A DNA stretch of 63,452 nt, the filler included. It is 3 parts of 3 records of this genome, joined end to end, with 100 filler letters (N's around TTAATTAATTAA, not from the genome) between each part and the next. Parts side by side here need not be neighbours in the genome. Positions count along the whole stretch, not along the records: positions 1 to 22,313 come from SRR31156797_23904; 2 more parts are not named here. One strand, written 5' to 3'. Shown here in pieces: positions 517 through 21,921 of the stretch (the stretch's first letter is position 1; every line of letters starts with the position of its first letter). The notes under the pieces were generated by a model. The model was not told where the DNA came from. It made no database searches and saw only the letters and a list, made by a program, of their open reading frames with translations. The translations under genes were made by a program, and so were the position numbers.

Positions 517-2205
517 ATGAACCTGCTTAGGCTCCTGAACGCTTCCGGAGAAAAACCGCTGCGCAGACTCATGTGCTATGCCGCCGTCTCCGCCTTAGGC
601 ACCACTGTTGTCCTGGCGGTGATTACCTATGCGGCAAAATCCATCCACGATGCCAAAGAGGCGTTTGTAGATCTTCGTCTTGCCATGATCTTTGTCGCCA
701 GTACACTAATATACTTCACGGCAGAAAGCGCCATGATCGCCCGTCTGGCCGCCGACCTGGAAAAAGCCGTAAACCGTGTCAGAATGGCATTGATCCACCA
801 ACTGCGCCATGCAGATCTCTGGAATCTGGAACATTTCGGCGAAAGCCGGCTGTTCGAAAGCATCACACAGAATTGCAAGGCCATCTCCGCCAATTCCCAA
901 TACATTTCCCAGGCCCTGAGATCCGTGATCCTGATCCTGATGATCCTGGTCTATATTGCCACCATTTCAATGGTAACCTTTCTGCTTTTGTCCGGAATGA
1001 TAACGGCGGCATCCTTGATTTATTACCGCCTGGGCAAAACCCTGGAACAGGCCCGAAACGCCATGGGGGATCATGAAACCCGGTTGTTCGACTACGTCTC
1101 AGACCTTTTTGACGGGTTCAAGGAACAGCGGCTGTGCAGCGTTCGCAGCCAGGCCATCAGCCAAGGGTTCGCGGCCCAGTCCCTTGAGACGGCCAAGGCC
1201 TTCAGCAGGGTGCACAAGCACACCTGGCAGCAATTCGTTTTCGGAGAAACCACTTTTAACGCCATGCTTGGGGTGGTACTCTTTATCGTCCCCCTCTATG
1301 CGCCCACGGTCAGCAGCAATCTGGTTAAAATTTCAGCGTCAATTCTCTTTTTGGCATCGCCGATCTTCGGCCTGATGCAGTCCCTGGCCGTGTTGCGTGC
1401 CACTGAAGCTGCCGCAGGACGCATGCTGGTGTTGGAAGAGGAACTGACCGCACTGGAGGAAAAAGGCAGCGTTGATCCCTTTGAACCCCTGTCCGCCAAT
1501 TTCTCAGAGATCCGGATGGAAGGCCTTGAATTTACCTTTCCAGCCCCGCCAAAAGACACCTCCTTTACCATCGGTCCCATGGATGTTTGTATCAAAAGGG
1601 GAGAAACGGTGTTCATCAGCGGAGGCAACGGGGCCGGAAAATCCACCTTTATCAATTTGTTGACAGGCCTCTATCACCCCGGACGGGGTAAATTATCCAT
1701 GGACGGCCTTCCCATCACACCAGCCCGCCTGGCAGGCTTTCGCAATTTAATTGCACCGGTTTTCTCGGACTTTTACCTTTTCTCCCGACTCTACGGCCTC
1801 ACAGATGATGATCTGACAGAATCAGACCGCCTGATGGCGTGGATGGAGATGGCAAATATTTCGGATATCCGGGAGCAGGCCTTCACCCGCACCGACCTGT
1901 CGACCGGACAAAGAAAACGCCTCGCCCTGGTGGCGGCCCTGCTTGAAAACAAACCCATCCTGATACTGGATGAATGGGCAGCAGACCAGGACGCCTCGTT
2001 CAGAAAAAAATTCTATAGGCAAATCCTGCCGGACCTTTCGGAAAAGGGGTTTACCGTCATTGCCGTAACCCACGACGATCGATACTATGATGTGGCGGAC
2101 CGCAGGTTTCATCTTGACGAAGGCAAATTAACACAAATCACCTGCCCTAGTGAGGAAAAGGAAAATTTTGTAATTGAGCCGGGGAGGAACGATGAAACTT
2201 TTTAG
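517..2205 (+). CDS. Cyclic-peptide export ABC transporter, fused TMD+NBD (SyrD/PvdE/YojI type)
   Basis: N-terminal TM helices, Walker A GGNGAGKST, signature LSTGQRKRLAL and family-typical ILDEWAADQD. Start moved to ATG 517, which follows a GGGAG RBS. Confidence 0.9.
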   Translation: MNLLRLLNASGEKPLRRLMCYAAVSALGTTVVLAVITYAAKSIHDAKEAFVDLRLAMIFVASTLIYFTAESAMIARLAADLEKAVNRVRMALIHQLRHADLWNLEHFGESRLFESITQNCKAISANSQYISQALRSVILILMILVYIATISMVTFLLLSGMITAASLIYYRLGKTLEQARNAMGDHETRLFDYVSDLFDGFKEQRLCSVRSQAISQGFAAQSLETAKAFSRVHKHTWQQFVFGETTFNAMLGVVLFIVPLYAPTVSSNLVKISASILFLASPIFGLMQSLAVLRATEAAAGRMLVLEEELTALEEKGSVDPFEPLSANFSEIRMEGLEFTFPAPPKDTSFTIGPMDVCIKRGETVFISGGNGAGKSTFINLLTGLYHPGRGKLSMDGLPITPARLAGFRNLIAPVFSDFYLFSRLYGLTDDDLTESDRLMAWMEMANISDIREQAFTRTDLSTGQRKRLALVAALLENKPILILDEWAADQDASFRKKFYRQILPDLSEKGFTVIAVTHDDRYYDVADRRFHLDEGKLTQITCPSEEKENFVIEPGRNDETF

Positions 2206-3820
2206 GCTGCTGATCCGTGAGATTCCGGGTAATTTTAACGCCACCCTGGCCATGAACGCTCTAATTCCGGTTTCCACCCTCGTGTTCGTGGCCCTTATTT
2301 CCATGGTGTCCCAGAGCACTGCCACCCAAGGAGTCAACCCGCGGCTGATGTTCATGTTCCTCATTAGCATCATCGTCTTCCATATCGCCCATACGCACAC
2401 ACTGGTGACAGCCTCCCGGGATGCCGAGCAGCTGATTCACCGGATTCGCACCCGCCTGTTTGACCTTGTCCGGCAGACTGACCTGATCACCATTGAAAAA
2501 ATCGGCCACGCCAGACTACAGGGGGTCATGACCCAGGATACCCAGGTGCTTTCCCAGGTGCTCCCCATACTGGTCATCGGCCTGCAACAGTTGCTGATGC
2601 TGGTCTTTCTTGCAGCGTACCTGGCCTGGCTCTCCCCCCTGGCCTGTGTTCTGGCCTTCGGCCTTGCCGGTGTTGCCGTGGCCCTGCATTTTGCCAGGGT
2701 AAAAGCCATGCGTTTTTTGATGCGGCGGGCGGACACAGCAGAACACACCGTATTTAAAGGGCTTTCAGAACTTATAAAAGGCTTTAAAGAAATCCGGATG
2801 AACGGTTCTAAAGCAAAAGGCGTGGTTGGGAACCTGGCCGACGCCTCTAAGGATGCCAGTAACAGCAACGTGCAGCTTAAACTGAAATGGGGACGCAACT
2901 ATGCAGCCACCGAGGCCCTGCTCTATTCCCTGGCCGGACTGATCGTTTTTGTCGTACCGCTCTTTGCCCCGGATTTTCACAAGGTAGTGATGCCTGCCAC
3001 CATTGTGGTGCTTTTCATTGCAGGCCCCGTGTGCACGGTTGCCTTTGCCACCCCCATGGTGACACAGGCGGAGCTGGCCCTGGAACATATAGCATCCATG
3101 GAAAACCGCCTGGCAGCGGCAGCCGCTGACACCGCCACAGAAACCCGGGAAACGCTGGAAGGAAAACTTGAGTCCATCGGCCTGGCCCGGGTAACCCATG
3201 CCTATCTTGATGATCAAAAAAATCCTTGGTTCACAGCCGGCCCCTTGGATGCGGCATTCAAGGCAGGACGAATCACCTTTATCACCGGGGGCAATGGATC
3301 GGGAAAATCCACCCTGCTACGCCTGCTGACAGGCCTTATCCCAGCTGATTCAGGACAAATTCTTGTCAACGGCTCCCCCCTTGGCATTGAACAGCTTCAA
3401 AGCTACCGGGACAAAATATCTGCTGTTTTCAGTGACTTTCATCTCTCGAACCGGATTTACTGCATCAACGACCATACTCCGGGAAGGATTGATGAACTGC
3501 TTAACCGGCTGGACATCTCCACCAAGGTGAAGGTAGAAAACAACACCTTCAGTACCACGGATCTGTCCACAGGACAGCGCAAAAGGCTGGCGCTCATGGT
3601 GGCGGAACTTGAAGACAAACCCGTGATCGTACTGGACGAGTGGGCCGCCGATCAAGACCCCCACTTCCGACGTATCTTTTATGAAAAACTGTTGCCGGAC
3701 CTCAAGGAGCGCGGAAAAATCATCATCTGCGTCACCCATGATGACAGATGGTTTCACACGGCAGACCGGATATACCACATGGAAGAAGGCAGGATAAAGA
3801 TAACCGGATCCCAGTCCTAG
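2192..3820 (+). CDS. Second cyclic-peptide export ABC transporter (SyrD/PvdE/YojI type)
   Basis: GGNGSGKST, LSTGQRKRLAL, VLDEWAADQDP. ATG 2192 follows GGAGG and overlaps the previous gene's end (translational coupling). Confidence 0.9.
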   Translation: MKLFRLLIREIPGNFNATLAMNALIPVSTLVFVALISMVSQSTATQGVNPRLMFMFLISIIVFHIAHTHTLVTASRDAEQLIHRIRTRLFDLVRQTDLITIEKIGHARLQGVMTQDTQVLSQVLPILVIGLQQLLMLVFLAAYLAWLSPLACVLAFGLAGVAVALHFARVKAMRFLMRRADTAEHTVFKGLSELIKGFKEIRMNGSKAKGVVGNLADASKDASNSNVQLKLKWGRNYAATEALLYSLAGLIVFVVPLFAPDFHKVVMPATIVVLFIAGPVCTVAFATPMVTQAELALEHIASMENRLAAAAADTATETRETLEGKLESIGLARVTHAYLDDQKNPWFTAGPLDAAFKAGRITFITGGNGSGKSTLLRLLTGLIPADSGQILVNGSPLGIEQLQSYRDKISAVFSDFHLSNRIYCINDHTPGRIDELLNRLDISTKVKVENNTFSTTDLSTGQRKRLALMVAELEDKPVIVLDEWAADQDPHFRRIFYEKLLPDLKERGKIIICVTHDDRWFHTADRIYHMEEGRIKITGSQS

Positions 3821-3865
3821 GACACGGAACACAACCCCTTATCAGAACTTAATCGGGAATATCAG

Positions 3866-4714
3866 ATGGCTTTGCAAACACTCAAAAAAAAATTCACCAC
3901 CCTGTGGGATAAGCATACCATAGGCATTACTCTATTTTTGCTGATCCTTGCGTTTCTGATTGCATTTTTCTGGAACAGTATTGTGATTTCAATCTATCCC
4001 GGGCAGCAGGGGGTCCGGTGGTCAAGGTTCAACGGCACCCAGCTCAACGAGATAAACAGTGAGGGGCTGCATATCATCTGGCCCTGGGATATCATGTACA
4101 AATATAATACCCGGTTTCAAACAATAAACAGCACCCTGGAGATTCTAACCACCGAGGGGCTGACCATCACTGTGGATTACGCCTTCAGATTCTATCCCAC
4201 GAAGAAGGGGCTCCCCTATATTCACCAAAACCTGGGGGAAAACTATGCCCAAACCTTTTTGGAACCTGAAGTCAAGGCAGCCTCCATGTCAGTGATCGGA
4301 AATTACCCCCCCGAGCAACTCTACAGAATTTCCACCCTGGTGATCCAGGCATCCATCAAATATTATCTGAACAAACAATTCCTGGCCCGTAATATTGTTC
4401 TGGACGACTATCTGATTAAACGCATCATTCTTCCGGAACCGGTTGCCGACTCCATCGAACAGAAAATGGTTGCCGACCAGCTCAGCCAGGAATACGATTA
4501 TAAACTGTCCATTGAAACCAAGGAAAAGGAACGCAAGTCCATAGAAGCCGAAGGGATCAATTCCTTTGAAAAAATTTCAGGCATCCCCATACTCAAGTGG
4601 AAGGGCCTTGAGGTCACCCAGGAACTGGCCAAATCCCCCAACTCGAAAATTATAATCATGGGCAACGGGGACAAGGGGCTGCCCCTGCTGCTCAATACCG
4701 GCGGGAAACCATGA
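3866..4714 (+). CDS. SPFH/Band-7 (prohibitin-like) membrane protein
   Basis: One N-terminal TM, GQQGVRWSRF, EGLHIIWPW, C-terminal coiled-coil KEKERKSIEAEGI and LAKSPNSKIIIMG...GLPLLL. Confidence 0.85.
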   Translation: MALQTLKKKFTTLWDKHTIGITLFLLILAFLIAFFWNSIVISIYPGQQGVRWSRFNGTQLNEINSEGLHIIWPWDIMYKYNTRFQTINSTLEILTTEGLTITVDYAFRFYPTKKGLPYIHQNLGENYAQTFLEPEVKAASMSVIGNYPPEQLYRISTLVIQASIKYYLNKQFLARNIVLDDYLIKRIILPEPVADSIEQKMVADQLSQEYDYKLSIETKEKERKSIEAEGINSFEKISGIPILKWKGLEVTQELAKSPNSKIIIMGNGDKGLPLLLNTGGKP

Positions 4715-4715
4715 T

Positions 4716-5708
4716 ATGAAGATAAATTTTGAAAAAAACCAATGTTTCACCTTGGTTATCGTCTTTGTGGCCTGTATGATGCTCCTGGAATTTCCCCGTT
4801 TACACGCCGGTGAACTAAAAAAAATCAACTTCATGCCCATGTGGCTTCCCCAACCCCAGTTCGCAGGTTTTTACATGGCCAGGGAAAAAGGGATTTATGA
4901 GAAGTACGGGCTTGATGTCAGGATAGTGAACCGGGGCTACAATGCGGATGTACTCATTGATCTGGGGCAGGGGAAAATCGATTTTGGCATCATGAATCTA
5001 TTGACGGCCCTTGAAAAAAGGGCATCGGGGAACGATATCGTGAATGTCGGCCAGATATTCCAAAAAAGTGCCATCGAATTCGTGGCCCGTAAAAGTTCAG
5101 GAATCAACAGTCCCCAGGACTTTAACGGCAAAAAAATCGCTGTGTGGAGAACCGTGCTCCGGGCCCAGACCCTGGGGTTTATAAAAGCCCGGAATATCAC
5201 AGCCAAGATCTACTCGGTGGATGAGGGGATAAGTTTCTTTCTAAAAAAGGCTGTGGATATCATTCCTGTCATGCACTATAATGAGTACAACACCCTGATC
5301 AACCGCGGTATTAATCCTGATGAACTCACCTTGTTCCCGCTAAAGGATTTTGATATGGATTTCCCCGAAGATGGAATTTACTGCCTTGCCCGGACCTATC
5401 AGGCAGATCCGAAGCTTGTCCGAAGCTTTGTCAAGGCCTCCATGGAAGGCTGGGAATACGCAGTGGCCCATCCCGGTGAAGCCATTGGCATCATCCAAAA
5501 AATTCGCCTGAAGGAGAATCTGAGTACCAATCCAGTCCACCTGCAATGGATGATGGATGCCATGCCGGAGATGATACGTCCAAAGGAGCCGGACAGTCCC
5601 GGCGGACATTTGGTCAAATCCGATTTTGACAAGGCCCTGGATTTTCTTCTAAAGACCCAAAAGATTTCCCGGAAGGTAAGTTACGATGCATTCTATGTCA
5701 ACCGCTGA
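4716..5708 (+). CDS. NMT1/THI5-like periplasmic substrate-binding protein
   Basis: Signal peptide, W.PQ.QFAGFY.A.EKG.Y...GLDV motif, SP.DF.GKKIAVW, FVKASMEGW.YA..HP.EA. Confidence 0.85.
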   Translation: MKINFEKNQCFTLVIVFVACMMLLEFPRLHAGELKKINFMPMWLPQPQFAGFYMAREKGIYEKYGLDVRIVNRGYNADVLIDLGQGKIDFGIMNLLTALEKRASGNDIVNVGQIFQKSAIEFVARKSSGINSPQDFNGKKIAVWRTVLRAQTLGFIKARNITAKIYSVDEGISFFLKKAVDIIPVMHYNEYNTLINRGINPDELTLFPLKDFDMDFPEDGIYCLARTYQADPKLVRSFVKASMEGWEYAVAHPGEAIGIIQKIRLKENLSTNPVHLQWMMDAMPEMIRPKEPDSPGGHLVKSDFDKALDFLLKTQKISRKVSYDAFYVNR

Positions 5709-6687
5709 TAACAGCCCGGAAAAATCGCAACCCAACCTGGTAAAACGTTTTCTCACAAGGGTTGACGCAATTCTTGCAATTGGTATTTTCGTCATCGTCG
5801 TGGTATTTACCGCCACCAACATGATGAAAAAAACCGGCGATCCGGACCCCACTAACATGTCCCACAGGCAGATCCGGCAGATGTTGAAAAACGATACGGA
5901 ACAGGTCAATCTTTTTGTAAAATCCATGGAAAAAATTCCTAAGGAGATTGCGACAATCCTTGAGTTACAGCAACTCCGGACAGAAGAGATTAAAATCGTT
6001 CAGGACGCCATCATGCTCAACAGTTCCGAAATTTTCGGCACCGCCGTGGCATTTGCCCCCGGCTCATCGGGTGAAAAAAGTCCACCCAAGCCATTGTATG
6101 CCTACAGAAAGGACGGCAAAGTTAAGTACACCGTCCTGGATCATCCCGGATATGACTATGTCAATAAAGACTGGTATTTATTGCCGAAAATACTTAATCG
6201 GCCGGTCTGGGTAGATCCCTATTTTGATGAAGGCGGCGGCGGGGTATTTATGACCACCTATGCGGTCCCCTTCTCCTTTTTTGACGGTATTACAAGTACC
6301 TTTACCGGGGTGGTGACCGTGGATGTATCCATTGCCTGGTTGACCCGCTTTTGCAATACAAGGAAAAAATTACCCAACAACGGATTTATCATGCTGCTTT
6401 CAGAAGACGGCGTTGTGATCAGCGCCCCCCAAAAAGAGTGGGAGGTCAACCACACCGTGTTTTCACTTGCGGTCTCTTTGAAACTTCCTGAATTACGAAG
6501 GGTCGGACGTGATCTGCAGAAAGGTAAGTCCGGTACGGCCGTAGTGACGTCACCGGCCACCGGGAAAGCCGTAAAAATATTTTATGCGGCAGTTCCTGCC
6601 AACCACTGGGGTATCCTATATGTTATTCCTGAAAAAAAACAAGACACCTCCCAAGAAATAAGGGCGGGTGACCAGCTGTTAATCTAA
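5686..6687 (+). CDS. Membrane-anchored dCache sensor-domain protein without an output domain
   Basis: Single TM, then Cache motifs DWY..PK....P.W.DPYFDEGGG...M.TY.VP and GVVTVDV. The protein ends about 20 aa after the last Cache strand (WGILYVIP), with no second TM, HAMP or catalytic domain. Confidence 0.75.
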   Translation: MHSMSTADNSPEKSQPNLVKRFLTRVDAILAIGIFVIVVVFTATNMMKKTGDPDPTNMSHRQIRQMLKNDTEQVNLFVKSMEKIPKEIATILELQQLRTEEIKIVQDAIMLNSSEIFGTAVAFAPGSSGEKSPPKPLYAYRKDGKVKYTVLDHPGYDYVNKDWYLLPKILNRPVWVDPYFDEGGGGVFMTTYAVPFSFFDGITSTFTGVVTVDVSIAWLTRFCNTRKKLPNNGFIMLLSEDGVVISAPQKEWEVNHTVFSLAVSLKLPELRRVGRDLQKGKSGTAVVTSPATGKAVKIFYAAVPANHWGILYVIPEKKQDTSQEIRAGDQLLI

Positions 6688-6701
6688 AGGGAGATTGGCT
6701 T

Positions 6702-6884
6702 ATGCCGGCTATTGTTATTGTATGTTTGGTGCTTTCTTTAATCGTGGGTCTTCTAGGCCGAAATACCTTTATCGGTTTCTGGGGCAGTTTTATGTTCTCA
6801 CTATTTTTTACTCCTATCCCGCCAATGATCTATATTCTCGTGACCCGGGCCTATAAAGTTTTTTTTACAAAGGAAACCGTTTAG
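6702..6884 (+). CDS. Small (60 aa) two-TM membrane protein, last gene of the export operon
   Basis: GGGAG RBS, 14 bp after the previous stop, hydrophobic with a GR....GFWG.F..S...TP motif. Confidence 0.7.
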   Translation: MPAIVIVCLVLSLIVGLLGRNTFIGFWGSFMFSLFFTPIPPMIYILVTRAYKVFFTKETV

Positions 6885-6949
6885 GGCGGCAAATAAAATA
6901 AAATGGACAAAATTGCACCGAGCTTTGGCTCAGACAAGGCAGATCCAAT

Positions 6950-8236
6950 TTATAAAATTTGCGGTCCTTGCCTCCCACGCGTTGAGTCTGAGCAGGGCAT
7001 TGAGGGGCTGCCTGGGATGAGGGGGTCGGTTTGCAAGGGACTGTCAAACAGCTTGCGCTGATACCCCAGACACTGGTACCCATTTTCATTGATAATGGGA
7101 ATCATATCGGTGTCAATGTCAAGTTCCTTGCGTACCCAGTAGCAGATGGACATGGAAATGCCGTAGCTGCCTCCTGTCTGCTGGAATCGCTTGAACTGAT
7201 CTTGGCAGAAGTCGCGTTCCGGTGCCGTGCGCTGCCGTTGTTTTCGATGGTCCCGGTTTTCCGGTGCCAGATAGAGATTATATAGACGCCGGGTCTGATC
7301 CGGATCAAAATGTTCCAGCAGCTGCCCGATCCAGGCCAGGTTGGCCGGGGATACGGTCAGGAATTCGGGCTTGAAATTGACGATGCCGTTTCGGTGGAGC
7401 CTGTCAAAAAATGCAGTCATCACTTCGTCGGTCAGATATGAGGGGAAAATAGGCTGAACCAGGGCGGATTCGGACAGGATGCCAAGCTCCTGGCAAGCCC
7501 GTACCGCAGCCATCCGTTCTGATACCGGCGCCCCGAAAGGTTCAAGCAAAAGACGCAGGGAATCGGGCATGATGGAGATGCTGGTGTTGAACTGCATTTT
7601 TCCTTTGAGCTGTTCAAAAAGATCGATAATACGTACGCCGTCCCGGGCATACATCAGGTGTTTGATCCCGGCTTTGGAAGCGATGAAAAGCCTTGCTTTG
7701 GAGTCCGGATACCTTTCATAGTGGCGGATAAAGGTGTTCAGTATCCTGTGGGCAATGCCGGTCTGGAGGGTGGCCTCCTGAAGCGCCTCGGTCTTTGCCG
7801 AATAATAATAGTAGTGTTCCTCGTGCCGATGTTTTTCCAGAATAGGCGCCAGAAGCCGGTCGTAATTTTCATAGGCATTAAGGGGATGTTCATGGACCCC
7901 GTCGGTGACAAGACAGTAGAGACAACCCACATGACAGCCCTGCACCGGGCTGACTTCATAGGTAAGAGTGGGACAATGTGAGGTGTAGTTATGGATTTCC
8001 AGGTTAGAGCCAAGATCAATCATCCCCAGGTCCACCCGGGACCTGGGGATGGCGGTACGCGCCTTCCAGCGGTCCACGAATGAGCGGCATCCCGAGGTGA
8101 ACAGATCCATAGTTGCCTCATCCGGTGTAACACTTACCCCGAGGGCTTTAAGGTCTTTTCTTCCTATCATCCTGGGTGCAAACCCTTTTAAGTTGTAAAT
8201 ATCCGGCTGGTTATCGTAAATTGGTGTCAATTTCAT
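6950..8236 (-). CDS. Radical SAM enzyme, spore-photoproduct-lyase-like family
   Basis: The ORF track gives +, but the protein reads from the minus strand (CAT at 8234-8236 = ATG AAA TTG ACA; TTA at 6950-6952 = TAA). CxxxCxxC motif in SPVQGCHVGCLYC, LEP.GAP..ER.AA motif, extra Cys in SHCPT, SICYW and YQCLG. Co-oriented with the NRPS genes. Confidence 0.85.
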   Translation of the reverse strand: MKLTPIYDNQPDIYNLKGFAPRMIGRKDLKALGVSVTPDEATMDLFTSGCRSFVDRWKARTAIPRSRVDLGMIDLGSNLEIHNYTSHCPTLTYEVSPVQGCHVGCLYCLVTDGVHEHPLNAYENYDRLLAPILEKHRHEEHYYYYSAKTEALQEATLQTGIAHRILNTFIRHYERYPDSKARLFIASKAGIKHLMYARDGVRIIDLFEQLKGKMQFNTSISIMPDSLRLLLEPFGAPVSERMAAVRACQELGILSESALVQPIFPSYLTDEVMTAFFDRLHRNGIVNFKPEFLTVSPANLAWIGQLLEHFDPDQTRRLYNLYLAPENRDHRKQRQRTAPERDFCQDQFKRFQQTGGSYGISMSICYWVRKELDIDTDMIPIINENGYQCLGYQRKLFDSPLQTDPLIPGSPSMPCSDSTRGRQGPQIL

Positions 8237-9881: not shown

Positions 9882-9918
9882 ATGTTGTCACCCTGTCCTT
9901 TCACCGGTATGATTTGTT

Positions 9919-12900: not shown

Positions 12901-15900
12901 AAAGGCATGAACGGCAGTGGGAAAATCAATGGTCAGATCCCTGCCCCGGCCGAATTGTTCTGTAAGCTGCCGGACATCTTCAGCCGGGAGACGGGAAATT
13001 ATTCGGGCAGGCAGGTCCGGGCGGTTCAGCACCCGTTTGATTCTGGCCCGGAACTGTGTCCTGAGCCTGTCTGCCAGTGCCGGCGGTACAGCCCGGGGAT
13101 GGAATCGGAATTCGGCGGCAGAATCTACCCCGCCGTCCCGGAACAGAATCACCAGGTCGTATCCGTCACTGCCGTGGGTGGATAAGGGGCTGGGAAAATT
13201 TGCGTTATCCTCTCCGACGCGTTCAAAGGAAAAAAGGTGACGGGGCAAACGGCCGGCCATGGTGTCAGGCACGTCATACCTGGATTGAATCAAATCCATT
13301 TCATCCTGGACAGCCGAGGCAAAGCCTGTAAAAGATTGATCGCCGACCAGAGGACGGATCAACGGCAGGGTCCTGGCGCACATACCCACGAGGGATTCAA
13401 TCCCGGACAGAGGCGGCCTGCCTGCGGAAACAAACCCCAGCATCATTGACCCCTGTTCCGGACAGTCGGCATAGTGCTCCAGAACCAGCACCCAAATCGC
13501 CATGAAAAATGCCGCAGGCGTGATCCCTTCCTTTTGGGCTGCAGCCTTGCTGGCCATAAATTCATCAGAGGAAAGCAGCGCAAGGCTCCGGATCAGGTCT
13601 GAATCGGCAGCGTCTTCCTTGACAGTCTCCTGGGTAAGCAAGACGGGCAAATTCGCCGGCATGGCATGGGCGGGAAATTTTTCCTCCCAAAAATCCCCGG
13701 AGGCGTGATGGTCAAATATCGCGTCTTCGGATCTTTCATGACGGGGAATTCGGGCATGAATCCATTGGAGATATTCCCCAAAGGAGAGAACCGGCGCAGA
13801 CGACGCGGGTACGCTGCCGAAGAGTTCATCAAACAGGATACCCAGACTCCATCCGTCCAGGATCAGGTGGTGGTAATGAAACAGCATCTCCAGGTGCCCC
13901 TCCGCCATCCTGAAAAATTCCAGGCGGATCAGGGGGGGCTTAAATGGATCCAGCCCCGCTTTCATATCTGCCATCCGACCGATAAGTTGCGATCTGATAT
14001 CCTGGGGGCTCTCATCATGATAAACAAAAGGGATTTCCATCCGGGGGGGTACGACCACCCAGGATGCCCCATCCCCATCCAGGGCAAAACAGGACCGCAG
14101 GAGGTCGTGACGTTCCATGGCAGAGGCCAGGCGGCTACGGATCTCTTCCGGAGACGGCGTGGTGTTCGCAAGCTTGTAATGTCCGGTCACGGCATAGGCG
14201 TTTGGCCCGTATATTGCGGCCTGGGTGAGCAACATTCTCTGGGTAGGCGTGGGGGGAAGAACGATTGTCCCCTTACCCCAGACAGCTTCCATTGATCTGC
14301 AAAATCCGGCATCGGGAAGAGGCAAGGGCACTGATTTGTATTCAACCCCTTCGGCATCCGGAGGGGTTTTCGTATTCGGGGCCACCATCTTTGCCGCCAG
14401 CACCCTGAGGGTGGAACTGGTCATGATATCCCTGAGGGAAACCTGCCACCCCAGACTTTCCAGTCGGGCGGCCAGACGGATGGCGTTGATGGAGTCCCCG
14501 CCCGCTGCCAGAAAACTTTGCAGCACATTGGCATCTATTCCAGGCAGCAAGTCTGCCAGGACGGTCAAGAGAACATTTTCGGCCGGTGTATCAGGGGAAG
14601 CGACCGGAAAGTCCCCGGCCCGGCCTTCCGGTTCCGGGAGTGCGCGAAGATCTATCTTGCCTCCGGGAGTCAACGGCAGAGCATCTATCCGAATGATCGC
14701 GGGGAGCATATGGGACGGTAGTTTCTCAGAAAGAAAAGCCATGATCTCCTCTTTCCGGAAACTATGGGAGGAGGAGACCACCCATGCAGCCAGCCGCTTT
14801 TCACCTCCGGCTGTCGGCGCTTGCAAAGCTGCCACAGCCCTGTCGATCCAGGGATGGGACTGGAGCACGCTTTCAATTTCCCCCAGCTCCACCCGGAATC
14901 CCCTTACTTTAACCTGATTGTCCATACGGCCCAGGAAGATCAGGTCACCCCGTTCATCGTCCGGTGCTGTCTGCCAGTAGGCCAGGTCACCGGTGCGGTA
15001 AAGCCGTCTGTGCTCAGACTCGTCACGGTCCGGATTAAAAAAAGGATTATCTATGAATTTTTCAGCGGTCAACGGATCGTCTCCCAGATATCCCCGGGCC
15101 ACCTGAACACCTGAAAAACACAGTTCTCCCGGTACGCCCAAGGGCACGAGCCGACCCATGCTGTCAATAATAAAAGCCCGCATCCCGGGAAGGGGTCTGC
15201 CGATGGGGATGGGCGTCAAGTTCTGTGACAAAGTATATGACGTACAGGTCACCGTGCATTCAGTGGGACCGTACTCGTTGACAACAGTGTAAGGCACCCG
15301 GGTATAACGGCCAATGGCGTCCCCGCCTGTGGCCAAAAAACGCAAGGCAGACGGGGCATTGCTGCCTGGGAACCTGTCCATAAACTCCTCGGCCATGGCA
15401 ACGGGCAGGTCCATGTGGGTGATACGTTCCCTAATCACGTAATCCCTTATCCGATGCAGGGTATGCTGGCTCCCTTCCCCCAGAATATGAACGGTCCCGC
15501 CGCTGAACAGGGCAGAATAGAAACCCCAGATGGCCACGTCATAGGCGAACTCGGTCTGGATAGCGGCGCTCATATCCGGCCCCCAGTGGTACCGGTCCAT
15601 GGCCCAGGTGCAAAACGCCACGGCATTTCGGTGTTCCACCACCACGCCCTTGGGGCGCCCTGAGGTACCGGAGGTCATGATGATATAGGCCGGATCCTCT
15701 GGACAGGCAGATCGGTAGGTCTTGTTTTTTCTCCCGGCAGCCGGTGGATGCCCAAGCCGATCAAAATTTTCTTCATCCAGCACCAGATCCGGATCTGTAT
15801 CTGCCAAGACCTGTCGGACCCGGTCAAACCGCCATTCCGGGGAAAGGGGCAGATAGGCGGCTCCCGCCTGGAGTACGGCCAAGGCCGCAATGGCGATCCG

Positions 15901-17442
15901 GTGGGATCGATTAAGCGTAAAGGCCACCAGATTGCCCGGCCCAACACCCTGGTCGGCCAGAGCATCAGCCAGGGCATCCACACGGCTTGCCAGTTCACCA
16001 TAGGTCATGCGGGTACTTTCCCAAACCAGGGCGTTTTTCTCTGAATGGGCTGCAGCCGCATTCCGCCAGAGCGTTGCCAGGGTGTGACCGGCGGCCCCAG
16101 GCAACGGCGGATCATAGGACAGCAGCAGAGCCGTCTCTTCATCCGGAAGAAAAGCAATATCTTTCAAACCGATATCCGGGTTCCGAACGACAGCGGCCAG
16201 GATGTTGCAAAAATGGACGGCCGCGCGTGTCACGGCCCGGGTCGAGTATTTTCGAGTATCGTAAGAAAAGCAGGCCTGAACCGTTTTTCCCAGTTCGAAA
16301 CCGGCAGTAAAGCCTGCCACAGCCTCCCCGTATCCCCGGACCCACTCGGGACCGTCTGCCGGGGGGGCAGGGTCAGCCACAAAGAGAAGATCAGCATAGC
16401 CGGGTATCATTTTGTTCAACACGGTGGGGGAGGCAAATCCGTGACGCTCATCCGCTGATACCTGGGTGTTCCATTCCCTGATCCAGGCGGAAAAGGCCTT
16501 TTCTTCGGGTAGATCCAACCGGACCGGAATGGTATTGACACACATACCGACCATTCCAATCACCCCGGGCACCGTTCCCATACGGCCGTTGATAACATGA
16601 CCGAACCCAACCCGTCCCCCGTTGTACCGGCAAAGCAGCAGTGCCCACAAAGCCTGAAGCAGGCGTCCGGGTGAGATGCGCAGCTGCCGGGCCAGACCAT
16701 ACAGACGGACGCTTTCCGGCAATGAAAACCGGTGGTGTGCGCAGTCCCAAGCCATATTGTCTGTTTCTTGATCTGAAATTGGGCCTGTCACCTGGCCGGG
16801 GAACCGGCTCGCCTCAACGCCGGCAAGCCGGGCCTGCCAATAGGCAAAATCTGACTGAATGTCCCGCTTTGCCAGAAACCGGAGATACCGGCTAAAGGGC
16901 ACCCCTTTGTCTCCGGTCGCCTCTTGGGCCAGAAGCTGCTTCATCAGAATGGCCAGGCTCCAGCCATCCAGGACGGCGTGGTGGAAGATGATTCCCACAT
17001 CCCGGATGCCTGTACCCGGCCCGAACCTGTCAAACAGGACCAGTCGACACAGGGGACCGGTAAAAGGGTCTATCCCTCTTGTGCGAACCGCTTCAAGATA
17101 GTCGCCGATGGCCAGGTCCTGATCTTCGGTACTGCGACCGGAGAGATTTTGGCAGCTGAATCCGGGAAGATGGCCTTTAGGAAAGGCCTGGGTCAGGTTC
17201 CCGTCATCATCGAGGAAAAGCCGGGTACGCAGGACCGGATGGATCTGGGCAAGCCCATGCCAGCGCCGGCGAAGTTCATCAGGATCACAGAGACGGGGAA
17301 GCCTGAAATGAATCAGTGAGAGGTAGCGGGGAGCAGACTTTTGCCCGGATGCCGAAGACTGTGTCGACGCAATAGAGTCAAAGACCATTCCCTCCTGCAT
17401 GGGGGTCAGGGGAAACCGACCGGGAATATCAGGCAAATTCAT
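9919..17442 (-). CDS. NRPS, C-A-T-C-A-T-R (terminal thioester reductase)
   Basis: C: HHAVLDG and HHLILDG. A: TSGTSGRPKG/NEYGPTE and TSGTTGRPKA/NAYGPTE. T: GGDSI (Ser 14491-14493) and GGHSL (Ser 11293-11295). R: ITGATGYLG, HSAA.VNH, YSRTK. Likely start ATG 17442 overlaps the upstream NRPS stop. Confidence 0.95.
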   Translation of the reverse strand: MNLPDIPGRFPLTPMQEGMVFDSIASTQSSASGQKSAPRYLSLIHFRLPRLCDPDELRRRWHGLAQIHPVLRTRLFLDDDGNLTQAFPKGHLPGFSCQNLSGRSTEDQDLAIGDYLEAVRTRGIDPFTGPLCRLVLFDRFGPGTGIRDVGIIFHHAVLDGWSLAILMKQLLAQEATGDKGVPFSRYLRFLAKRDIQSDFAYWQARLAGVEASRFPGQVTGPISDQETDNMAWDCAHHRFSLPESVRLYGLARQLRISPGRLLQALWALLLCRYNGGRVGFGHVINGRMGTVPGVIGMVGMCVNTIPVRLDLPEEKAFSAWIREWNTQVSADERHGFASPTVLNKMIPGYADLLFVADPAPPADGPEWVRGYGEAVAGFTAGFELGKTVQACFSYDTRKYSTRAVTRAAVHFCNILAAVVRNPDIGLKDIAFLPDEETALLLSYDPPLPGAAGHTLATLWRNAAAAHSEKNALVWESTRMTYGELASRVDALADALADQGVGPGNLVAFTLNRSHRIAIAALAVLQAGAAYLPLSPEWRFDRVRQVLADTDPDLVLDEENFDRLGHPPAAGRKNKTYRSACPEDPAYIIMTSGTSGRPKGVVVEHRNAVAFCTWAMDRYHWGPDMSAAIQTEFAYDVAIWGFYSALFSGGTVHILGEGSQHTLHRIRDYVIRERITHMDLPVAMAEEFMDRFPGSNAPSALRFLATGGDAIGRYTRVPYTVVNEYGPTECTVTCTSYTLSQNLTPIPIGRPLPGMRAFIIDSMGRLVPLGVPGELCFSGVQVARGYLGDDPLTAEKFIDNPFFNPDRDESEHRRLYRTGDLAYWQTAPDDERGDLIFLGRMDNQVKVRGFRVELGEIESVLQSHPWIDRAVAALQAPTAGGEKRLAAWVVSSSHSFRKEEIMAFLSEKLPSHMLPAIIRIDALPLTPGGKIDLRALPEPEGRAGDFPVASPDTPAENVLLTVLADLLPGIDANVLQSFLAAGGDSINAIRLAARLESLGWQVSLRDIMTSSTLRVLAAKMVAPNTKTPPDAEGVEYKSVPLPLPDAGFCRSMEAVWGKGTIVLPPTPTQRMLLTQAAIYGPNAYAVTGHYKLANTTPSPEEIRSRLASAMERHDLLRSCFALDGDGASWVVVPPRMEIPFVYHDESPQDIRSQLIGRMADMKAGLDPFKPPLIRLEFFRMAEGHLEMLFHYHHLILDGWSLGILFDELFGSVPASSAPVLSFGEYLQWIHARIPRHERSEDAIFDHHASGDFWEEKFPAHAMPANLPVLLTQETVKEDAADSDLIRSLALLSSDEFMASKAAAQKEGITPAAFFMAIWVLVLEHYADCPEQGSMMLGFVSAGRPPLSGIESLVGMCARTLPLIRPLVGDQSFTGFASAVQDEMDLIQSRYDVPDTMAGRLPRHLFSFERVGEDNANFPSPLSTHGSDGYDLVILFRDGGVDSAAEFRFHPRAVPPALADRLRTQFRARIKRVLNRPDLPARIISRLPAEDVRQLTEQFGRGRDLTIDFPTAVHAFCAAAGRYTDLPALVHGTTCLTYGQLDTRTDELARRLIAMGAGRGCVIGAVMSRSIAGAAVPLGIMKAGAAYLPLAPDWPVSRINDMLALTNACALVTDCLAPADICLQTLILTENFGNLEADGDAGLLPEPSPGDLAYVICTSGTTGRPKATAVPHRALANQVAWTLDRFGLCPYDQVLHTIAFSFDPSLWLLFPSWAGGACVHMAPGELLVDSAALMAALHRLGITRLALPTRVGDLLFDHARKVPTGQAGGRGGFPRSLVTMAVGGESPQRLMPVDFEVINAYGPTEACIQVTTCPVSTLFGASRIIGRPLANVQVYVVNAGLELCPVGVAGELCLSGPQLAEGYLGMPVETDRVFLNNPFSDRPGFERIYRTGDRVRWLPDGNLEFLGRADGQIKIRGYRIEIEEVRRVLLAAPGVRGAHVMVQNDRTGQPSRLDAYYTLQDSPCTQDQIQAFAASRLPAYMMPSSFTVVRQWPLNAHGKLDTDQLPPPLIETASGSRPRTDTEKVLARSWEAVLGISDICREDNFFDLGGHSLQLLNVMGHMADTHSIELQDFFKAPKLSDLAVCMRPVAKGSARTQKKECTDYVGGKTGERKHTGTYQSTGEDPYYQNLVATAPRLPKARPLALHKIMITGATGYLGAFLLKEYRDRTAATILVPVRGAKDPWDRLHASLCFYFGRTDANRMLDRKRILPVSADLSHSRDVHFLETCLPHLDMILHSAAAVNHYGSPKLLAAANVTATEHLLELAARHEHCRFVHISTLSAVNLPDFSELTEDVGPPARNHYSRTKQAAEKRVLSARDRGLDCQIFRTGNLILDTANHRFPQAAPSNMFLRLARMIAKTGMALDGTGKMGPTFVDQAARAIRLLARRTDLGSGIFHIDNPHQIALSQILSMALPKEKAIRRLPVTALKAQLSTMGQAEPEDRAEAARQFLAWIGQQERERAEGEIFSGEAKMDWTIALLANLGFVWPKMTRELAGAVLDRALTLDEGG

Positions 17443-20400
17443 CGTCCTCGTCGTCAAAAGCGTCTGCAGGTTCTATCATTTGCATCAACTCACCCAGCCG
17501 GGCCTGCTCATAAATCGTGGTGGCCGGCAGGTACCACCCTGTTTTGAAAAGTTCCGCCTCCAGGCGCATGGCGGTAATGGAATCGCCCCCCAGCTCAAAA
17601 AAATCGTCATCCGGCTCAGACGTGGAAACGTTCAGAACCTCCTGCCACGCAAAAATCAAGGCCTGTGCCGCCATATCATTCCCGGTCAAATCCGCATCAG
17701 AGGAACGCTGCGGGATGTGCGCAGTGTCATCCTCCCCTTCCGGTTTTAATTCATGCAGAATTTGGCCTGAAGGCCAGGGTAGCTGGCCCAGAGGCCGGCC
17801 TGGCTCGGCGCAGGCTGTCCGGATAACCGTTGCCATTGCATCTGCCCAGCCCTTCATCAGATCGGGTTGGAACAAGTCCCTGGCATAAATCAATTCCAGA
17901 AAAATCTGATCCCGGCCCTCCCGGATCTCAAGGATCATATCGAACATGGCCGTGGGACGGTTGACCCCTGGAACAATCCTGGCGCAGACCTCTTGGTCCG
18001 CCGATTTTAACACCGGGAAAGACCGGGGCTGGGGAAGCCGGTTGATCATCACGTCGAACAGGGGACTTCGCCCTGGAATCCGGGAGGGCTTGACCAGCTG
18101 AACAATCCGTTCAAGCGAGCAGGTCTGGTGTTCCCAGGCATCCAGAAAGCCTTCCCGGACCTCCCGAAGCCAGTCTGAAAACGGCTGGGCCCCGTCCTGT
18201 ACCGGTCGAAGACGCAAGGGCAGTGTTCTAACAAACATCCCTTTGCAAAACTGGAGTGCCGGATGATCCCTTCCAGCAAAAGGCACGCCCATCACGATGT
18301 CGTCAAACCCTTGGGTAACGGCTGCTTGGCGAGAAACAAATGCGGCCCAAACCGCCAGCATAATTTGAAATACGGAGACCCTGTAAATCTCGGCCAGTTT
18401 TGCCAAAGCGTCCCGGTCCTCTTTTCCCAGGACCACCCGGGCAACGGCACTGCCCCCTGTCAGGGCAGAGGGTCTGGGGGAAACAGCGCCTGAAAGATCC
18501 AAGGGCGGCGGGAGGTCGTTCAACTGTTCCTGCCAGAAGTTTTCAGATATTTTAAGTTCCCGCCTGTCTTGCCGATTACGGTCCCAAAGGACATAATCGG
18601 TCATTAGAACAGTCTGACCGCCTCCTGGATCGTGAATTTCTCCAGCCATGTACAAATCCCACCAGGCATCCATCAAAAGACGGGACGAAGCCGCATCCAC
18701 GAGGATATGATGGGTTGTCAGCCCCAAAAAACTGCAACGGGAATTGATTTCGATACGGACCACGTAAAAGAGAGGCGATCGGGACAGATCAATGGCCGGC
18801 CGGGCAAGACTTAGTTTCTCCCACAGCAGGCGTGCCTGTTCCGGATCCGACGCATGATGACACTCAAAATCATAGGTCACGGTATCGTCGATCACCCAGG
18901 CCGGCTCCCCGTCCGTCTCAATAAACCTGGAGCGCAGGAGAGGCTCCTGCTCAACCAGCCTGGCAAACACTTCTTCCAGCCGATGGCCGTCAACATCCCC
19001 TTCCACCATCATGCAGGTATCTATTTCGTAAGCCCGTGGATCTTTGCCCAGACGCCACACCAGGTACATCTGCCGCATGGGCATGGTCAGGGGATACCGG
19101 TCCCGGGGTGGAGATGCGGGAATGCGTGATACGTCGGCCGCATCCCCGGCCAGATCAATCATTTCAAGAACTGCCGACGGCCAGGGTCTGCGAAAAATTT
19201 CTCCGTATGATAAATCAACTGAAAACTCGCTGCGCAGCATAAGCTGAAGCCCCGCAAGTTTCAAGGAATCCCCCCCCAGGGCAAAAAAATTGTCCAAAGG
19301 GTTGACACTGGAAACCAGTAGTTTCTTTGCAAAAATTTCACACAGGCGGCCCAGGCGTAGATTATGATCGGGCACTGAATCCTTTAGATCAACAATACCC
19401 GCAGACGCCATGTTTTGCGCCGGAAATTGTGGAAGCCGGGAGCGCTCAATCTTACCGTGTACCCCTCTTGGCAAGGCCTGCATTATTTTAATCCGGACAG
19501 GCACCATGTACTCGGGCACAAGGGCGGTTAGCTGGGATTTCAGGACCTGGGAGTCAAGTTTGTCTCCTGCGGCCCAGGCGTAAAGGGCCATCCCGTGATC
19601 GGCCGTTTTTTGAGCAACGACCACACATTCACGTACGCCGTCACAGCTATTCAATTTCACTTCCACATGACCCGGATCCACACGCATCCCGCGAATTTTT
19701 ACGACAAAATCACTGCGCCCGCAATGGACCAGCAGTCCGTTTTCATCCAGGCGAGCCTGGTCCCCGGACAGATAAAGGCGGTTGTAGCCGGAAGCATCCA
19801 TGCCGTCAAATGAACTCGAATCTGTCAGAGGGGGCGTATACACTGAAGGTTGGACATGGGTAAAGGGATTGGTGATGAAACACTCCTGTGTCCTCTCCGG
19901 CATCCCCAGGTACCCCCTGGCCAAGGACGGGGAACTTACCGCCATTGTGCCCATCTCTCCCGGACGGATCATATTATTTTGATCATCCAGGAGATAGATC
20001 CGGGAAGGACCAAATGCCCTGCCCAGGGGAATATTGGATTCATATGCCTTTTGGATGGATAAAAATGTGACGGAACCACCGTTTTCAGCCATGCCCAGGG
20101 AGTACAAAATTTCGTAAGGGGTATGGGAACAAGAGCGCAGGGGACCGCCGGCCACCCGGACATACTTCAGGGACTGTCCGCTGCAGTTGTGGCTGAACAT
20201 CTCAGCCATATCCGGAGAAAGAAAGACGTATCGAATTTCATGCCTCTCAAAATAGGTCTCCAGGGCCAGGGGATCGCGTCGCACCGTTTCACTCAAAATA
20301 TGCAGGGTCATGCCGGAAGCCAGGGGATAAAGCAGTTCCCAGGGCGCAGCAATAAACCCCAAAGGCGCAAAAGCTGCGGTGTGTGATCCGGGGGGGAGAT

Positions 20401-21040
20401 CCATGTATGATTTTTGCCAGGCCAACATGGAAGAGATGGCCCGGTGCTCAAGAACGGCACCCTTAGGCTGCCCGGTGGATCCGGAGGTAAATATGGCGGT
20501 GGCAATATCCCGTGGGTTTGGAATAAACCGATCCGATGCTTCAAAAGACTCTGACACCGCTTTTTTGTGAAGCCCCGGATCGGTCAGGTCGATGCAGGGG
20601 ATGTTCTCCAGGCCTTGATTCCCGGGCTCAGAAGTCAATATCGCCGTCACGAGGGTTGTTTGGGCAATCTGACGAATGTAGGCCTCGGGAGCGTCACCGG
20701 GCACGCAGATATAAGCCCCGCCTGCCCGGAGCACCGAAAGAATGCCCACGGCCGCAGCAACGGTTCTACCTGTCAATACCATAATCCAGGGGGACACATC
20801 TGCCTTTTCCGGATAACCAATGTCGTAATTTTCAGGACAGGAACTTTCACCCAGACCCAAAGCCCTGAGGCGACCGGCGACCAAGCGCGAAAGCCGGTCT
20901 AACTCCTTAAAGGTTAGCTGCTGCCGGTCATCCCTGACCGCAGGCCGATCTGGATAAGTTGCCGCACATTTGTAAAACTGTTCCAGAAATGAAATTCCGG
21001 ACAGAAACTCGAAGCTCACTTCGTCAACACAGGAAGTCAT
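17429..21040 (-). CDS. NRPS, A-T-C-T (atypical starter A domain; second module lacks A)
   Basis: A: LTFKEL, IFTSGSTGQPKG, degenerate FIAAPW / SLGMAE / YLSGDQ, HGKIER. T: GGDSL (19265-19267). C: HHILVDA. T: GGDSI (17579-17581). Acidic C-terminal tail DAFDDEDDEFA. Confidence 0.93.
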   Translation of the reverse strand: MTSCVDEVSFEFLSGISFLEQFYKCAATYPDRPAVRDDRQQLTFKELDRLSRLVAGRLRALGLGESSCPENYDIGYPEKADVSPWIMVLTGRTVAAAVGILSVLRAGGAYICVPGDAPEAYIRQIAQTTLVTAILTSEPGNQGLENIPCIDLTDPGLHKKAVSESFEASDRFIPNPRDIATAIFTSGSTGQPKGAVLEHRAISSMLAWQKSYMDLPPGSHTAAFAPLGFIAAPWELLYPLASGMTLHILSETVRRDPLALETYFERHEIRYVFLSPDMAEMFSHNCSGQSLKYVRVAGGPLRSCSHTPYEILYSLGMAENGGSVTFLSIQKAYESNIPLGRAFGPSRIYLLDDQNNMIRPGEMGTMAVSSPSLARGYLGMPERTQECFITNPFTHVQPSVYTPPLTDSSSFDGMDASGYNRLYLSGDQARLDENGLLVHCGRSDFVVKIRGMRVDPGHVEVKLNSCDGVRECVVVAQKTADHGMALYAWAAGDKLDSQVLKSQLTALVPEYMVPVRIKIMQALPRGVHGKIERSRLPQFPAQNMASAGIVDLKDSVPDHNLRLGRLCEIFAKKLLVSSVNPLDNFFALGGDSLKLAGLQLMLRSEFSVDLSYGEIFRRPWPSAVLEMIDLAGDAADVSRIPASPPRDRYPLTMPMRQMYLVWRLGKDPRAYEIDTCMMVEGDVDGHRLEEVFARLVEQEPLLRSRFIETDGEPAWVIDDTVTYDFECHHASDPEQARLLWEKLSLARPAIDLSRSPLFYVVRIEINSRCSFLGLTTHHILVDAASSRLLMDAWWDLYMAGEIHDPGGGQTVLMTDYVLWDRNRQDRRELKISENFWQEQLNDLPPPLDLSGAVSPRPSALTGGSAVARVVLGKEDRDALAKLAEIYRVSVFQIMLAVWAAFVSRQAAVTQGFDDIVMGVPFAGRDHPALQFCKGMFVRTLPLRLRPVQDGAQPFSDWLREVREGFLDAWEHQTCSLERIVQLVKPSRIPGRSPLFDVMINRLPQPRSFPVLKSADQEVCARIVPGVNRPTAMFDMILEIREGRDQIFLELIYARDLFQPDLMKGWADAMATVIRTACAEPGRPLGQLPWPSGQILHELKPEGEDDTAHIPQRSSDADLTGNDMAAQALIFAWQEVLNVSTSEPDDDFFELGGDSITAMRLEAELFKTGWYLPATTIYEQARLGELMQMIEPADAFDDEDDEFA

Positions 21041-21381
21041 TGGTTAAGTTTATCCAACACTATAATATTGATTATGTTGCCCATTCCTTGGGCTCTGGAT
21101 AGAGCAGGCACGCACAGGGCCACCATTGCCGGTATCCTGTCCCCTGAATCCGGGCAGCGATTTTCCGGACGGATTAAAAACAAGAAATGCAACCAAAGAA
21201 AATTTGAAAAAGCATGCTCTGCGCAGCTATCCCTTGCAAAACAAGCCCAAATTATACAAATAACACCTGCGACCTATGGCGCGATACCATAGGCATACCA
21301 GACGTACATCGTGCCTGGTCAAAATCAGGTATAATTTAAATTTCGGTTCAAATTAAAAACAGCCTGGAATTAAACCCCGGC

Positions 21382-21921
21382 TTAGGCGGCTGCAGTTGCG
21401 CCCCGTTTTCCGGCAATCAAGTCTGCCATTTTTTGTCTGGCAACCTGAACGGCAGACTTAAAGCTGTCCGAGAGCTCACCTGCCGCCGTCCCAACAAGGG
21501 AACCGCCCTGGGCAAAATGTGTGGCAAACACATGCCCCAGTGCGTAGGTACTTACCCCGTTCAACACCGGTCCTGTGGCAATGGCCAGGGGAAGCCCCAC
21601 CAAGGGAATGGCTAAAGCAACGCCCCCGACCGCTGGAGATGCCAGGCTAACCGCTCCACTTGAAAGCAGGCCGGATATGATATTTCGCGCGGCAGTTTCG
21701 CTAAAGGTTTTATCATACTTGGTACAAAGGCTTTTAACAAGCCCGACTTGAATGGCGGTAACTCCGGCAAAATTAATTAAAGGTAATCCCAGAAGGCCGA
21801 CGCCGGCAGCATAGTTGGCACGCCTGCGAATGAGCTTAGTGATTTCCTCCGACGCCGGATCAATCGGCTTGGGGGCTTCGGTAGTCTTGTTTTCTTGTTT
21901 TTCCTGCATTTTTTCGGTCAT
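21382..21921 (-). CDS. DUF697/YcjF-like hydrophobic helical protein
   Basis: Pattern I....YAAG.GL..LP....AGV.AIQ..LV..L...Y...F and STYALG.VF..HF..GG.L. Start ATG 21921 follows GAGGGA. Confidence 0.7.
   Translation of the reverse strand: MTEKMQEKQENKTTEAPKPIDPASEEITKLIRRRANYAAGVGLLGLPLINFAGVTAIQVGLVKSLCTKYDKTFSETAARNIISGLLSSGAVSLASPAVGGVALAIPLVGLPLAIATGPVLNGVSTYALGHVFATHFAQGGSLVGTAAGELSDSFKSAVQVARQKMADLIAGKRGATAAA

Follow-up and report, generated by a model that had tools for sequence, protein, structure and literature searches.

A rare reductase-terminated nonribosomal peptide synthetase cluster with a radical SAM enzyme, a candidate producer of capped peptide aldehydes or alcohols

The gene cluster described here lies in the first part of a DNA stretch of 63,452 nucleotides (the window in what follows, made of three parts of one genome's records joined end to end with filler letters) and combines a nonribosomal peptide synthetase (NRPS) line ending in a reductase with a radical S-adenosylmethionine (rSAM) enzyme, two ATP-binding cassette (ABC) exporters and several membrane proteins. 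We propose, with moderate confidence, that the NRPS line would build a capped three-residue peptide aldehyde or alcohol, that the cap would be made or tailored by the rSAM enzyme and that the product would be exported by the ABC proteins. The genes are best explained as belonging to a biosynthetic cluster that is rare and has spread horizontally, the window holding one of its copies. In other phyla the rSAM gene and the exporter operon stay with the NRPS genes, in rearranged orders, which bears out the claim of a first-pass annotation, made from the letters of the window, that these genes form one biosynthetic system.

In the model we propose, the adenylation (A) domain that starts the first synthetase, NRPS1, would activate a carboxylic acid of some other kind than an alpha-amino acid and place it on carrier (T) domain 1, the acid having been made or tailored before assembly by the rSAM enzyme, which resembles spore photoproduct lyase (SPL). 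The stand-alone A domain would load a hydrophobic amino acid in trans onto carrier 2, and the second synthetase, NRPS2, would then add a residue, probably basic, selected by a pocket in which two side chains are acidic, followed by a fourth unit selected by a DPW..G..(Q/N)K pocket. The terminal reductase (R) domain would free the capped tripeptide, in aldehyde or alcohol form, and the ABC1/ABC2 pair would carry it out of the cell.

The genes were called from a list of open reading frames (ORFs) combined with Pfam and NCBIfam scans of the window proteins, and the result reproduces, gene for gene, the content and strand layout that the first-pass annotation had given (C stands for condensation domain):

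517-2205, plus strand: ABC1, a half-transporter with fused six-helix permease and ATPase (PF00005, 92 bits)
2174-3820, plus strand: ABC2, a half-transporter with fused permease and ATPase (TIGR01194, 329.6 bits)
3866-4714, plus strand: SPFH/Band 7 membrane protein with one N-terminal helix (PF01145, 77.9 bits)
4716-5708, plus strand: NMT1/SsuA-like solute-binding protein with an N-terminal anchor (PF09084, 143 bits)
5686-6687, plus strand: membrane-anchored dCache protein (PF22673, 76.5 bits, and PF02743) with one helix, residues 21-39
6702-6884, plus strand: 60-aa two-helix membrane protein with the motif GFWG..F.SL..TP
6950-8236, minus strand: rSAM enzyme, SPL-like, with CxxxCxxC at C101/C105/C108
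8328-9881, minus strand: stand-alone A domain (TIGR01733, 332.9 bits)
9919-17457, minus strand: NRPS2, C-A-T-C-A-T-R from its Pfam domains
17429-21040, minus strand: NRPS1, A-T-C-T from its Pfam domains, 1203 aa
21382-21933, minus strand: DUF697 membrane protein (PF05128, 28.0 bits against a cut-off of 27.7)

The two operons are convergent and their stop codons are 65 bp apart (gap 6885-6949), exactly the spacing noted earlier; promoter and terminator scans gave nothing over shuffle level in this gap or upstream of the operons.

The core motifs of the synthetases are complete and co-linear, with three HHxxxD condensation motifs, four GGxS carrier motifs and the A3, A5, A7, A8 and A10 motifs of the adenylation domains. 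NRPS1 has carrier motifs at residues 589 and 1151 and HHILVDA at 777, and NRPS2 has HHAVLDG at 159, HHLILDG at 1196 and carrier serines at 986 and 2052. The terminal R domain is of the short-chain dehydrogenase/reductase (SDR) type (PF07993, 98.3 bits, residues 2153-2385); the GxxGxxG and YxxxK signatures are both there, as GATGYLG at 2155 and YSRTK at 2306, which makes the line a modular NRPS with an SDR-type terminal reductase.

The adenylation pockets were read by motif anchoring, at code positions which we take to be those of Stachelhaus 1999, and the positions in the starter domain of NRPS1 (A1) were backed by a HMMER alignment to the solved LgrA structure. The pocket of A1 (window 19451-20971), IAWFRASGSK, has Ile in place of Asp235, the residue that binds the alpha-amino group, and Arg at 299, and the A5 motif of this domain is degenerate. 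Its code is identical at 10/10 positions in five relatives and at the 9/9 positions present in a sixth, which is truncated where its contig stops, and together they span four phyla. We infer from this pocket that A1 would activate a carboxylic acid other than an alpha-amino acid. The pocket of the first A domain of NRPS2 (A3), DVWDAGEVTK, keeps Asp278 and Glu322 in all six relatives compared, and that of the second (A4), DPWAAGAIQK, keeps DPW..G..(Q/N)K in 7/7.

The second carrier, which follows the C domain of NRPS1, has no A domain of its own. The free A domain has the pocket DAMFLGLAYK, with conservative variants in relatives. In a Desulfobacteraceae genome (L004, positions 8-2794; L087 shares this contig), a single ORF of 928 aa encodes the R domain fused to the otherwise free A domain. 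Because it stands fused behind the R domain there, the free A domain would belong to the line and load the A-less carrier 2; it is the probable in-trans loader of that carrier. The four-unit product of the first-pass annotation (a non-amino-acid starter, a residue, a basic residue and a terminal aldehyde or alcohol) is thus supported by the four carriers, by the lack of Asp235 in the starter pocket, by the R domain and, weakly as regards the basic residue, by the two acidic residues of the third pocket. Only the number and the order of the predicted units follow directly from the sequence.

Neither a phosphopantetheinyl transferase (PPTase) nor an MbtH gene is found among the 30 window ORFs scanned, a set that does not include all small ORFs, in agreement with what had been remarked before. 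In relatives, PPTases are encoded elsewhere in the genome and inside the cluster only in Sedimenticolaceae; in Ruminococcus sp. a PPTase gene stands directly before the NRPS1-like gene. No MbtH protein scored above cut-off in the genomes of five relatives. The close relatives of NRPS1 in a collection of 5.8 billion proteins are 12 sequence clusters 53-88% identical to it and 5 full-length ones at 34-36%; beyond these roughly 17 clusters, only generic NRPSs are found.

The unity of the cluster is best seen in its distribution. A scan of a genome collection was centred on the rSAM protein, and the 80 loci kept were compared with the window proteins by tblastn and Pfam. In eleven of them (L001-L011) the rSAM protein is 61-90% identical, and in each of these eleven an SPFH gene and an ABC gene of the cyclic-peptide type lie within a few kb; the R domain is found in eight and DUF697 in eight, and the NRPS-type loci without one or the other lie at a contig end or on a contig of only about 4-17 kb. 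Their hosts are Desulfobacter vibrioformis DSM 8776, two other Desulfobacteraceae, Sedimenticolaceae (two copies) and Planctomycetaceae on the one hand, and, among Bacillota, two Lachnospiraceae, Defluviitaleaceae, Ruminococcus sp. and Oscillospiraceae on the other. Both the gene set and the order of the domains are conserved over four phyla. The genome of the window is sulfate-reducer-like and its host close to the anaerobe Desulfobacter, in line with the earlier suggestion of a probable anaerobe. The same proteins are seen in regions of G092 (DUF697-NRPS1-NRPS2-A-rSAM, 75-86% identity), of the Planctomycete genome (an A-T-C-T protein of 1185 aa) and of the Lachnospiraceae genome (a free A domain, then the A1 domain at the contig end).

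The order of the genes varies between these groups, which argues against inherited synteny alone. In Sedimenticolaceae the genes follow each other on one strand as rSAM-ABC1-ABC2-SPFH-NMT1-Cache-small protein-PPTase-DUF697-NRPS1, and in Bacillota the order is NRPS-DUF697-SPFH-small protein-rSAM-ABC. When the 81 rSAM sequences are placed in a tree, those linked to an NRPS (12, from the 11 loci and the window) form one group with a support of 100 in the SH-like approximate likelihood ratio test (SH-aLRT). A chance neighbourhood was considered and rejected, the gene set recurring in other genomes.

The same linkage is seen within a single family and from the side of the synthetase. Among 151 sampled genomes of Desulfobacteraceae, the family of L001, the rSAM gene is present in four; three of these also encode the T-R end of NRPS2 (at least 53% identity) a few kb from it, and in the fourth the rSAM gene lies on a contig of 4 kb. 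Four other genomes of the 151, which have only distant R-ended NRPSs (27-32% identity), are without the rSAM gene. The close homologues of the NRPS do therefore co-occur with the rSAM and exporter genes. In metagenomes, where the query was a T-R alignment with generic motifs, the longer matches were 24-33% identical and no further family member was found among the matches listed; rSAM, SPFH and DUF697 genes were found at none of the 77 distant R-ended NRPS loci among them, two of which come from human-gut contigs.

The rSAM family itself extends well beyond the NRPS. The 80 loci divide into 11 of the NRPS type, 58 glycan loci, seven operons with a C-A-T-TE synthetase (TE, thioesterase) and four that fit none of these. 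In the glycan loci (within L012-L079; for example L024, 9968-15034), the rSAM gene is followed by a gene for an ATP-grasp-like protein of about 400 aa, and the partners are mostly WbqC, often a DegT aminotransferase and a flippase, and also a glycosyltransferase; the hosts are rumen Bacteroidales, Fibrobacter, Lachnospiraceae and Coriobacteriia. The seven others (L016, 6162-12361; L017, L018, L021, L022, L023 and L029) are three-gene operons for the C-A-T-TE protein, the rSAM enzyme and a family III CoA-transferase, found in Clostridia, other Bacillota and one Spirochaetales genome. The best NCBIfam matches of the CoA-transferase, all below cut-off, are succinate-glutarate, succinyl-CoA:mesaconate and oxalate/formyl-CoA transferases, and the operon probably makes an N-acyl amino acid. 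In both contexts the rSAM protein is about 49-58% identical to that of the window. Three of the four unassigned loci are contig-cut or very short. The fourth, L080 (5403-11194, Coxiellaceae), has the most divergent rSAM, at 47% identity, after a fusion of AMP-binding and class III aminotransferase parts of 1522 aa.

Across these contexts the enzyme is strongly constrained. C101, C105 and C108 are invariant in 81/81 sequences, with four further invariant Cys, and 97 columns, the seven cysteines included, are identical in at least 80 of the 81. The family gives 599 matches at E <=0.001, and its members, including those of the ESM Atlas and of sequence clusters, are named only 'hypothetical protein' or 'DNA repair photolyase'. 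The window protein scores 20.6 bits with PF04055 against a cut-off of 29.5, and its relatives 29.1-36.2, some of them above; NCBIfam gives only weak matches, to the rSAM models PA0069 and Rv2578c (33 bits, where the cut-offs are 360 and 430). Its AlphaFold model (pLDDT 82) has fold matches that are all rSAM enzymes, which places it in the superfamily, and the best of these are the spore photoproduct lyases 4k9r/4fhc (E about 1e-8, TM-score 0.43-0.56, 14-16% identity). Membership of the SPL family was rejected: no SPL model is among the NCBIfam matches, the identity to the solved SPL structures is 14-16% and the neighbours are biosynthetic rather than DNA repair genes. The predicted structure is SPL-like in fold, and the enzyme is not a member of the SPL family. 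Pfam and NCBIfam scans found no SPASM or peptide-recognition domain in it, and it has no hydrophobic segment.

Because the 97 near-invariant columns run through all contexts, the enzyme probably catalyses the same reaction everywhere. What all contexts have in common is a partner enzyme by which a carboxylic acid is activated to form an amide, and since the same constrained rSAM enzyme adjoins such enzymes everywhere, the making of the cap is ranked above the modification of a finished peptide: the rSAM enzyme would most likely make or tailor the acid cap before assembly. From the Arg of the A1 pocket and the type of the CoA-transferase it might be speculated that the acid is anionic and perhaps dicarboxylic.

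The export side of the cluster is also conserved. ABC2 scores above the cut-off (286.2) of the cyclic peptide export model TIGR01194, and ABC1, with 281.7 bits, just below it. ABC1 has six hydrophobic segments and is 86% identical to the copy in L001; ABC2 is 90% identical to that in L001 and 73% to that in L002, and probably forms a heterodimer with ABC1. In the copies from Bacillota and the Planctomycete there is one ABC gene only, immediately after the rSAM gene. The conservation of the exporter genes supports a putative export role. In all 11 NRPS-type loci an SPFH gene lies at most about 4 kb from the rSAM gene. DUF697 relatives, with up to 53 bits, occur in L002, L003, L006-L011, L081 and L086. 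The 60-aa protein matches no Pfam family even at E 10; its homologues, mostly encoded between the SPFH and rSAM genes, occur in 9/11 NRPS-type loci and in none of the 69 other rSAM loci, which argues that it is a real gene and a member of the cluster. The SPFH, DUF697 and 60-aa proteins are fixed membrane components of the cluster; one might guess that they serve as a scaffold, either in export or in self-protection.

The NMT1 and Cache proteins behave differently: their genes are found only in the Desulfobacter and Sedimenticolaceae copies (L001-L003, L081), whereas copies of the Bacillota, Planctomycete and Desulfotignum types lack them. In the periplasm the two proteins may bind a precursor or the product itself. 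The sensing role that the first-pass annotation had given to this operon finds no support here: the two proteins are confined to the closest proteobacterial copies, the Cache protein consists of one helix and a dCache domain without an output domain, and the cluster contains no kinase or regulator.

What else could the rSAM enzyme do? It may tailor the peptide, either while this is carrier-bound or after its release (epimerisation, methylation and the forming of a C-C or C-S bond are examples), a reading that is close to the radical-SAM product modification first put forward for the window and that we consider unlikely. Many radical SAM enzymes are known to have peptide substrates, the enzyme is present in every copy of the cluster, and with its four additional invariant Cys it could bind an auxiliary cluster as peptide-modifying rSAM enzymes do. 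However, nearly the same enzyme occurs in the 58 glycan loci and in seven single-module C-A-T-TE/CoA-transferase operons, none of which could make this peptide; furthermore, its best fold match is spore photoproduct lyase, and the domains expected for peptide recognition were not found. This distribution makes the supply of a precursor the likelier role. Improbable in our view is a membrane unit for export or self-protection, made of the SPFH protein, the small protein, the rSAM enzyme and the ABC protein, in which the rSAM enzyme, instead of supplying a precursor, would have as its substrate some part of the membrane or envelope, or the product while it is being exported. The arrangement of the genes speaks for it, the rSAM gene being directly followed by the ABC gene in 10/11 NRPS-type loci and preceded by the SPFH and small-protein genes in six, as does the restriction of the small membrane protein to the NRPS-type clusters; against it, ABC, SPFH and 60-aa protein genes are found near the rSAM gene in 0/69 loci of the other contexts, and the enzyme has no segment that would hold it in a membrane. 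Very improbable is a metal-binding product, released reductively as in myxochelin, with the NMT1 and Cache proteins serving in re-uptake. Two periplasmic binding proteins are indeed encoded beside the exporter and NCBIfam gives a partial match to MxcG (697.8 bits), but this score is far under the cut-off of 2300, the binding proteins are missing from the copies of three host groups, and no catechol, hydroxamate or TonB-receptor gene was seen among the ORFs scanned. A catechol siderophore in particular was rejected, the A1 pocket being unlike a dihydroxybenzoate pocket, and no such genes being seen among the same ORFs.

Several observations weigh against the capped tripeptide with an rSAM-made cap that we prefer. 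No pocket code matches one that can be assigned with confidence, and 'hydrophobic' and 'basic' are weak calls. The free A domain copies of Ruminococcus and Oscillospiraceae are short (421-435 aa), and their A10 lysine is missing in the alignment. The sequence of the R domain is compatible with an aldehyde as well as with an alcohol. The rSAM tree comes from a quick maximum-likelihood search and is midpoint-rooted. Finally, the rSAM gene overlaps the ABC gene that directly follows it by 4-10 nt in three loci, and this adjacency, like the usual position of the SPFH and small-protein genes upstream, fits an export- or membrane-linked role of the enzyme equally well.

Could one conserved rSAM enzyme make the same unusual, possibly dicarboxylic, acid in all these settings, the acid being attached by three activation chemistries, with an NRPS A domain here, a CoA-transferase and a starter C domain in the small N-acyl amino acid operons, and an ATP-grasp ligase in surface glycans? 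If so, anaerobes of four phyla would use the NRPS version to make a tripeptide aldehyde with this cap, and it would need a new membrane module of SPFH, DUF697 and 60-aa proteins. We offer this generalisation as possible, and only tentatively.

The limits of the cluster and its surroundings add to the picture of its spread. The genes at 22-50 kb of the window were rejected as members, being concerned with sugar-acid catabolism and tripartite tricarboxylate transport; amid the sugar-acid catabolism genes lies an ORF of 1511 aa (34846-39381, plus strand) without any Pfam family at E <=1e-5. The G+C content of the exporter operon (window 1-6000) is 0.475-0.52, below that of the NRPS genes (0.54-0.585) and of the remaining window; this lower content and flanks unlike those of the cluster in L001 are consistent with acquisition as an island. 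The Sedimenticolaceae assembly carries two copies of the cluster on two contigs (L002, 83-7105, and L003). In L002 the cluster is preceded by genes for a DNA methylase, a zeta-toxin, a ResIII helicase and UmuD/UmuC-like proteins, a setting suggestive of a mobile island or a defence island.

Among small peptide aldehydes there are potent inhibitors of proteases, and to our knowledge few such compounds come from strict anaerobes. The cluster family is rare and well delimited, and it has a cultured carrier in Desulfobacter vibrioformis DSM 8776 (L001), whose cluster proteins are 79-90% identical to those of the window; because the starter pocket is invariant, one structure determination would cover the copies of four phyla. 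The larger prize is the rSAM enzyme, whose family is common in rumen and gut bacteria and for which we know of no assigned reaction, and its three contexts offer three independent routes to the substrate. Furthermore, the fixed set of SPFH, DUF697 and small proteins would be a new type of accessory module for an NRPS.

Several known systems come close to the cluster. The spumigins and aeruginosins of Nodularia spumigena, as described in PMC3765200, are linear capped tripeptide aldehydes that inhibit serine proteases, and their synthetases, like the present line, assemble four units (a carboxylic acid at the N-terminus, then two residues, and at the C-terminus an aldehyde or alcohol) on a terminal-reductase NRPS. 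Unlike them, NRPS1 and NRPS2 contain no ketoreductase (KR) or epimerisation family in the Pfam scans, A-T-C-T filling the 1203 aa of NRPS1. The spumigin loading module is A-KR-T. The second carrier of the cluster is A-less, no Choi, homotyrosine or methylproline gene is present, and rSAM, SPFH, DUF697 and small membrane proteins are encoded instead. The R-ended NRPSs of gut Clostridia, according to the review PMC12327764, release small peptide aldehydes. These too are R-ended NRPSs of anaerobes, and the Bacillota copies of the present cluster contain a C-A-T-C-A-T-R protein, but the published products are dipeptides, whereas here four carriers are found on two proteins with a free A domain. 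The gut family of Guo 2017, with which the ruminopeptin of Schneider and Balskus 2018 is grouped here, reportedly consists of two-module A-T-C-A-T-R or C-A-T-C-A-T-R synthetases that make dipeptide aldehydes.

The best-scoring named models for the A-T-R end, AusA (aureusimine) at 728.2 bits and MxcG (myxochelin) at 697.8, stay far under the equivalog cut-offs of 2500 and 2300, and the domain orders and partner genes differ. The rSAM enzyme shares with SplB, its best structural match, the CxxxCxxC motif, but is 14-16% identical to it and stands in a biosynthetic context. The glycan cassette of rSAM, ATP-grasp and WbqC genes, for its part, is without NRPS, SPFH, DUF697, small membrane protein and ABC exporter. 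Literature searches gave no description of the rSAM/SPFH/DUF697/small-protein/ABC set, which the supplementary maps of Guo 2017 and Schneider 2018 might show, and a search on DUF697 together with NRPS found nothing. In conclusion, the cluster belongs to a kind already known, the peptide-aldehyde NRPSs, of which it is an uncharacterised variant, set apart by its predicted A-less module served by a free A domain, by its invariant non-amino-acid starter pocket without a KR domain, and by its fixed accessory set.

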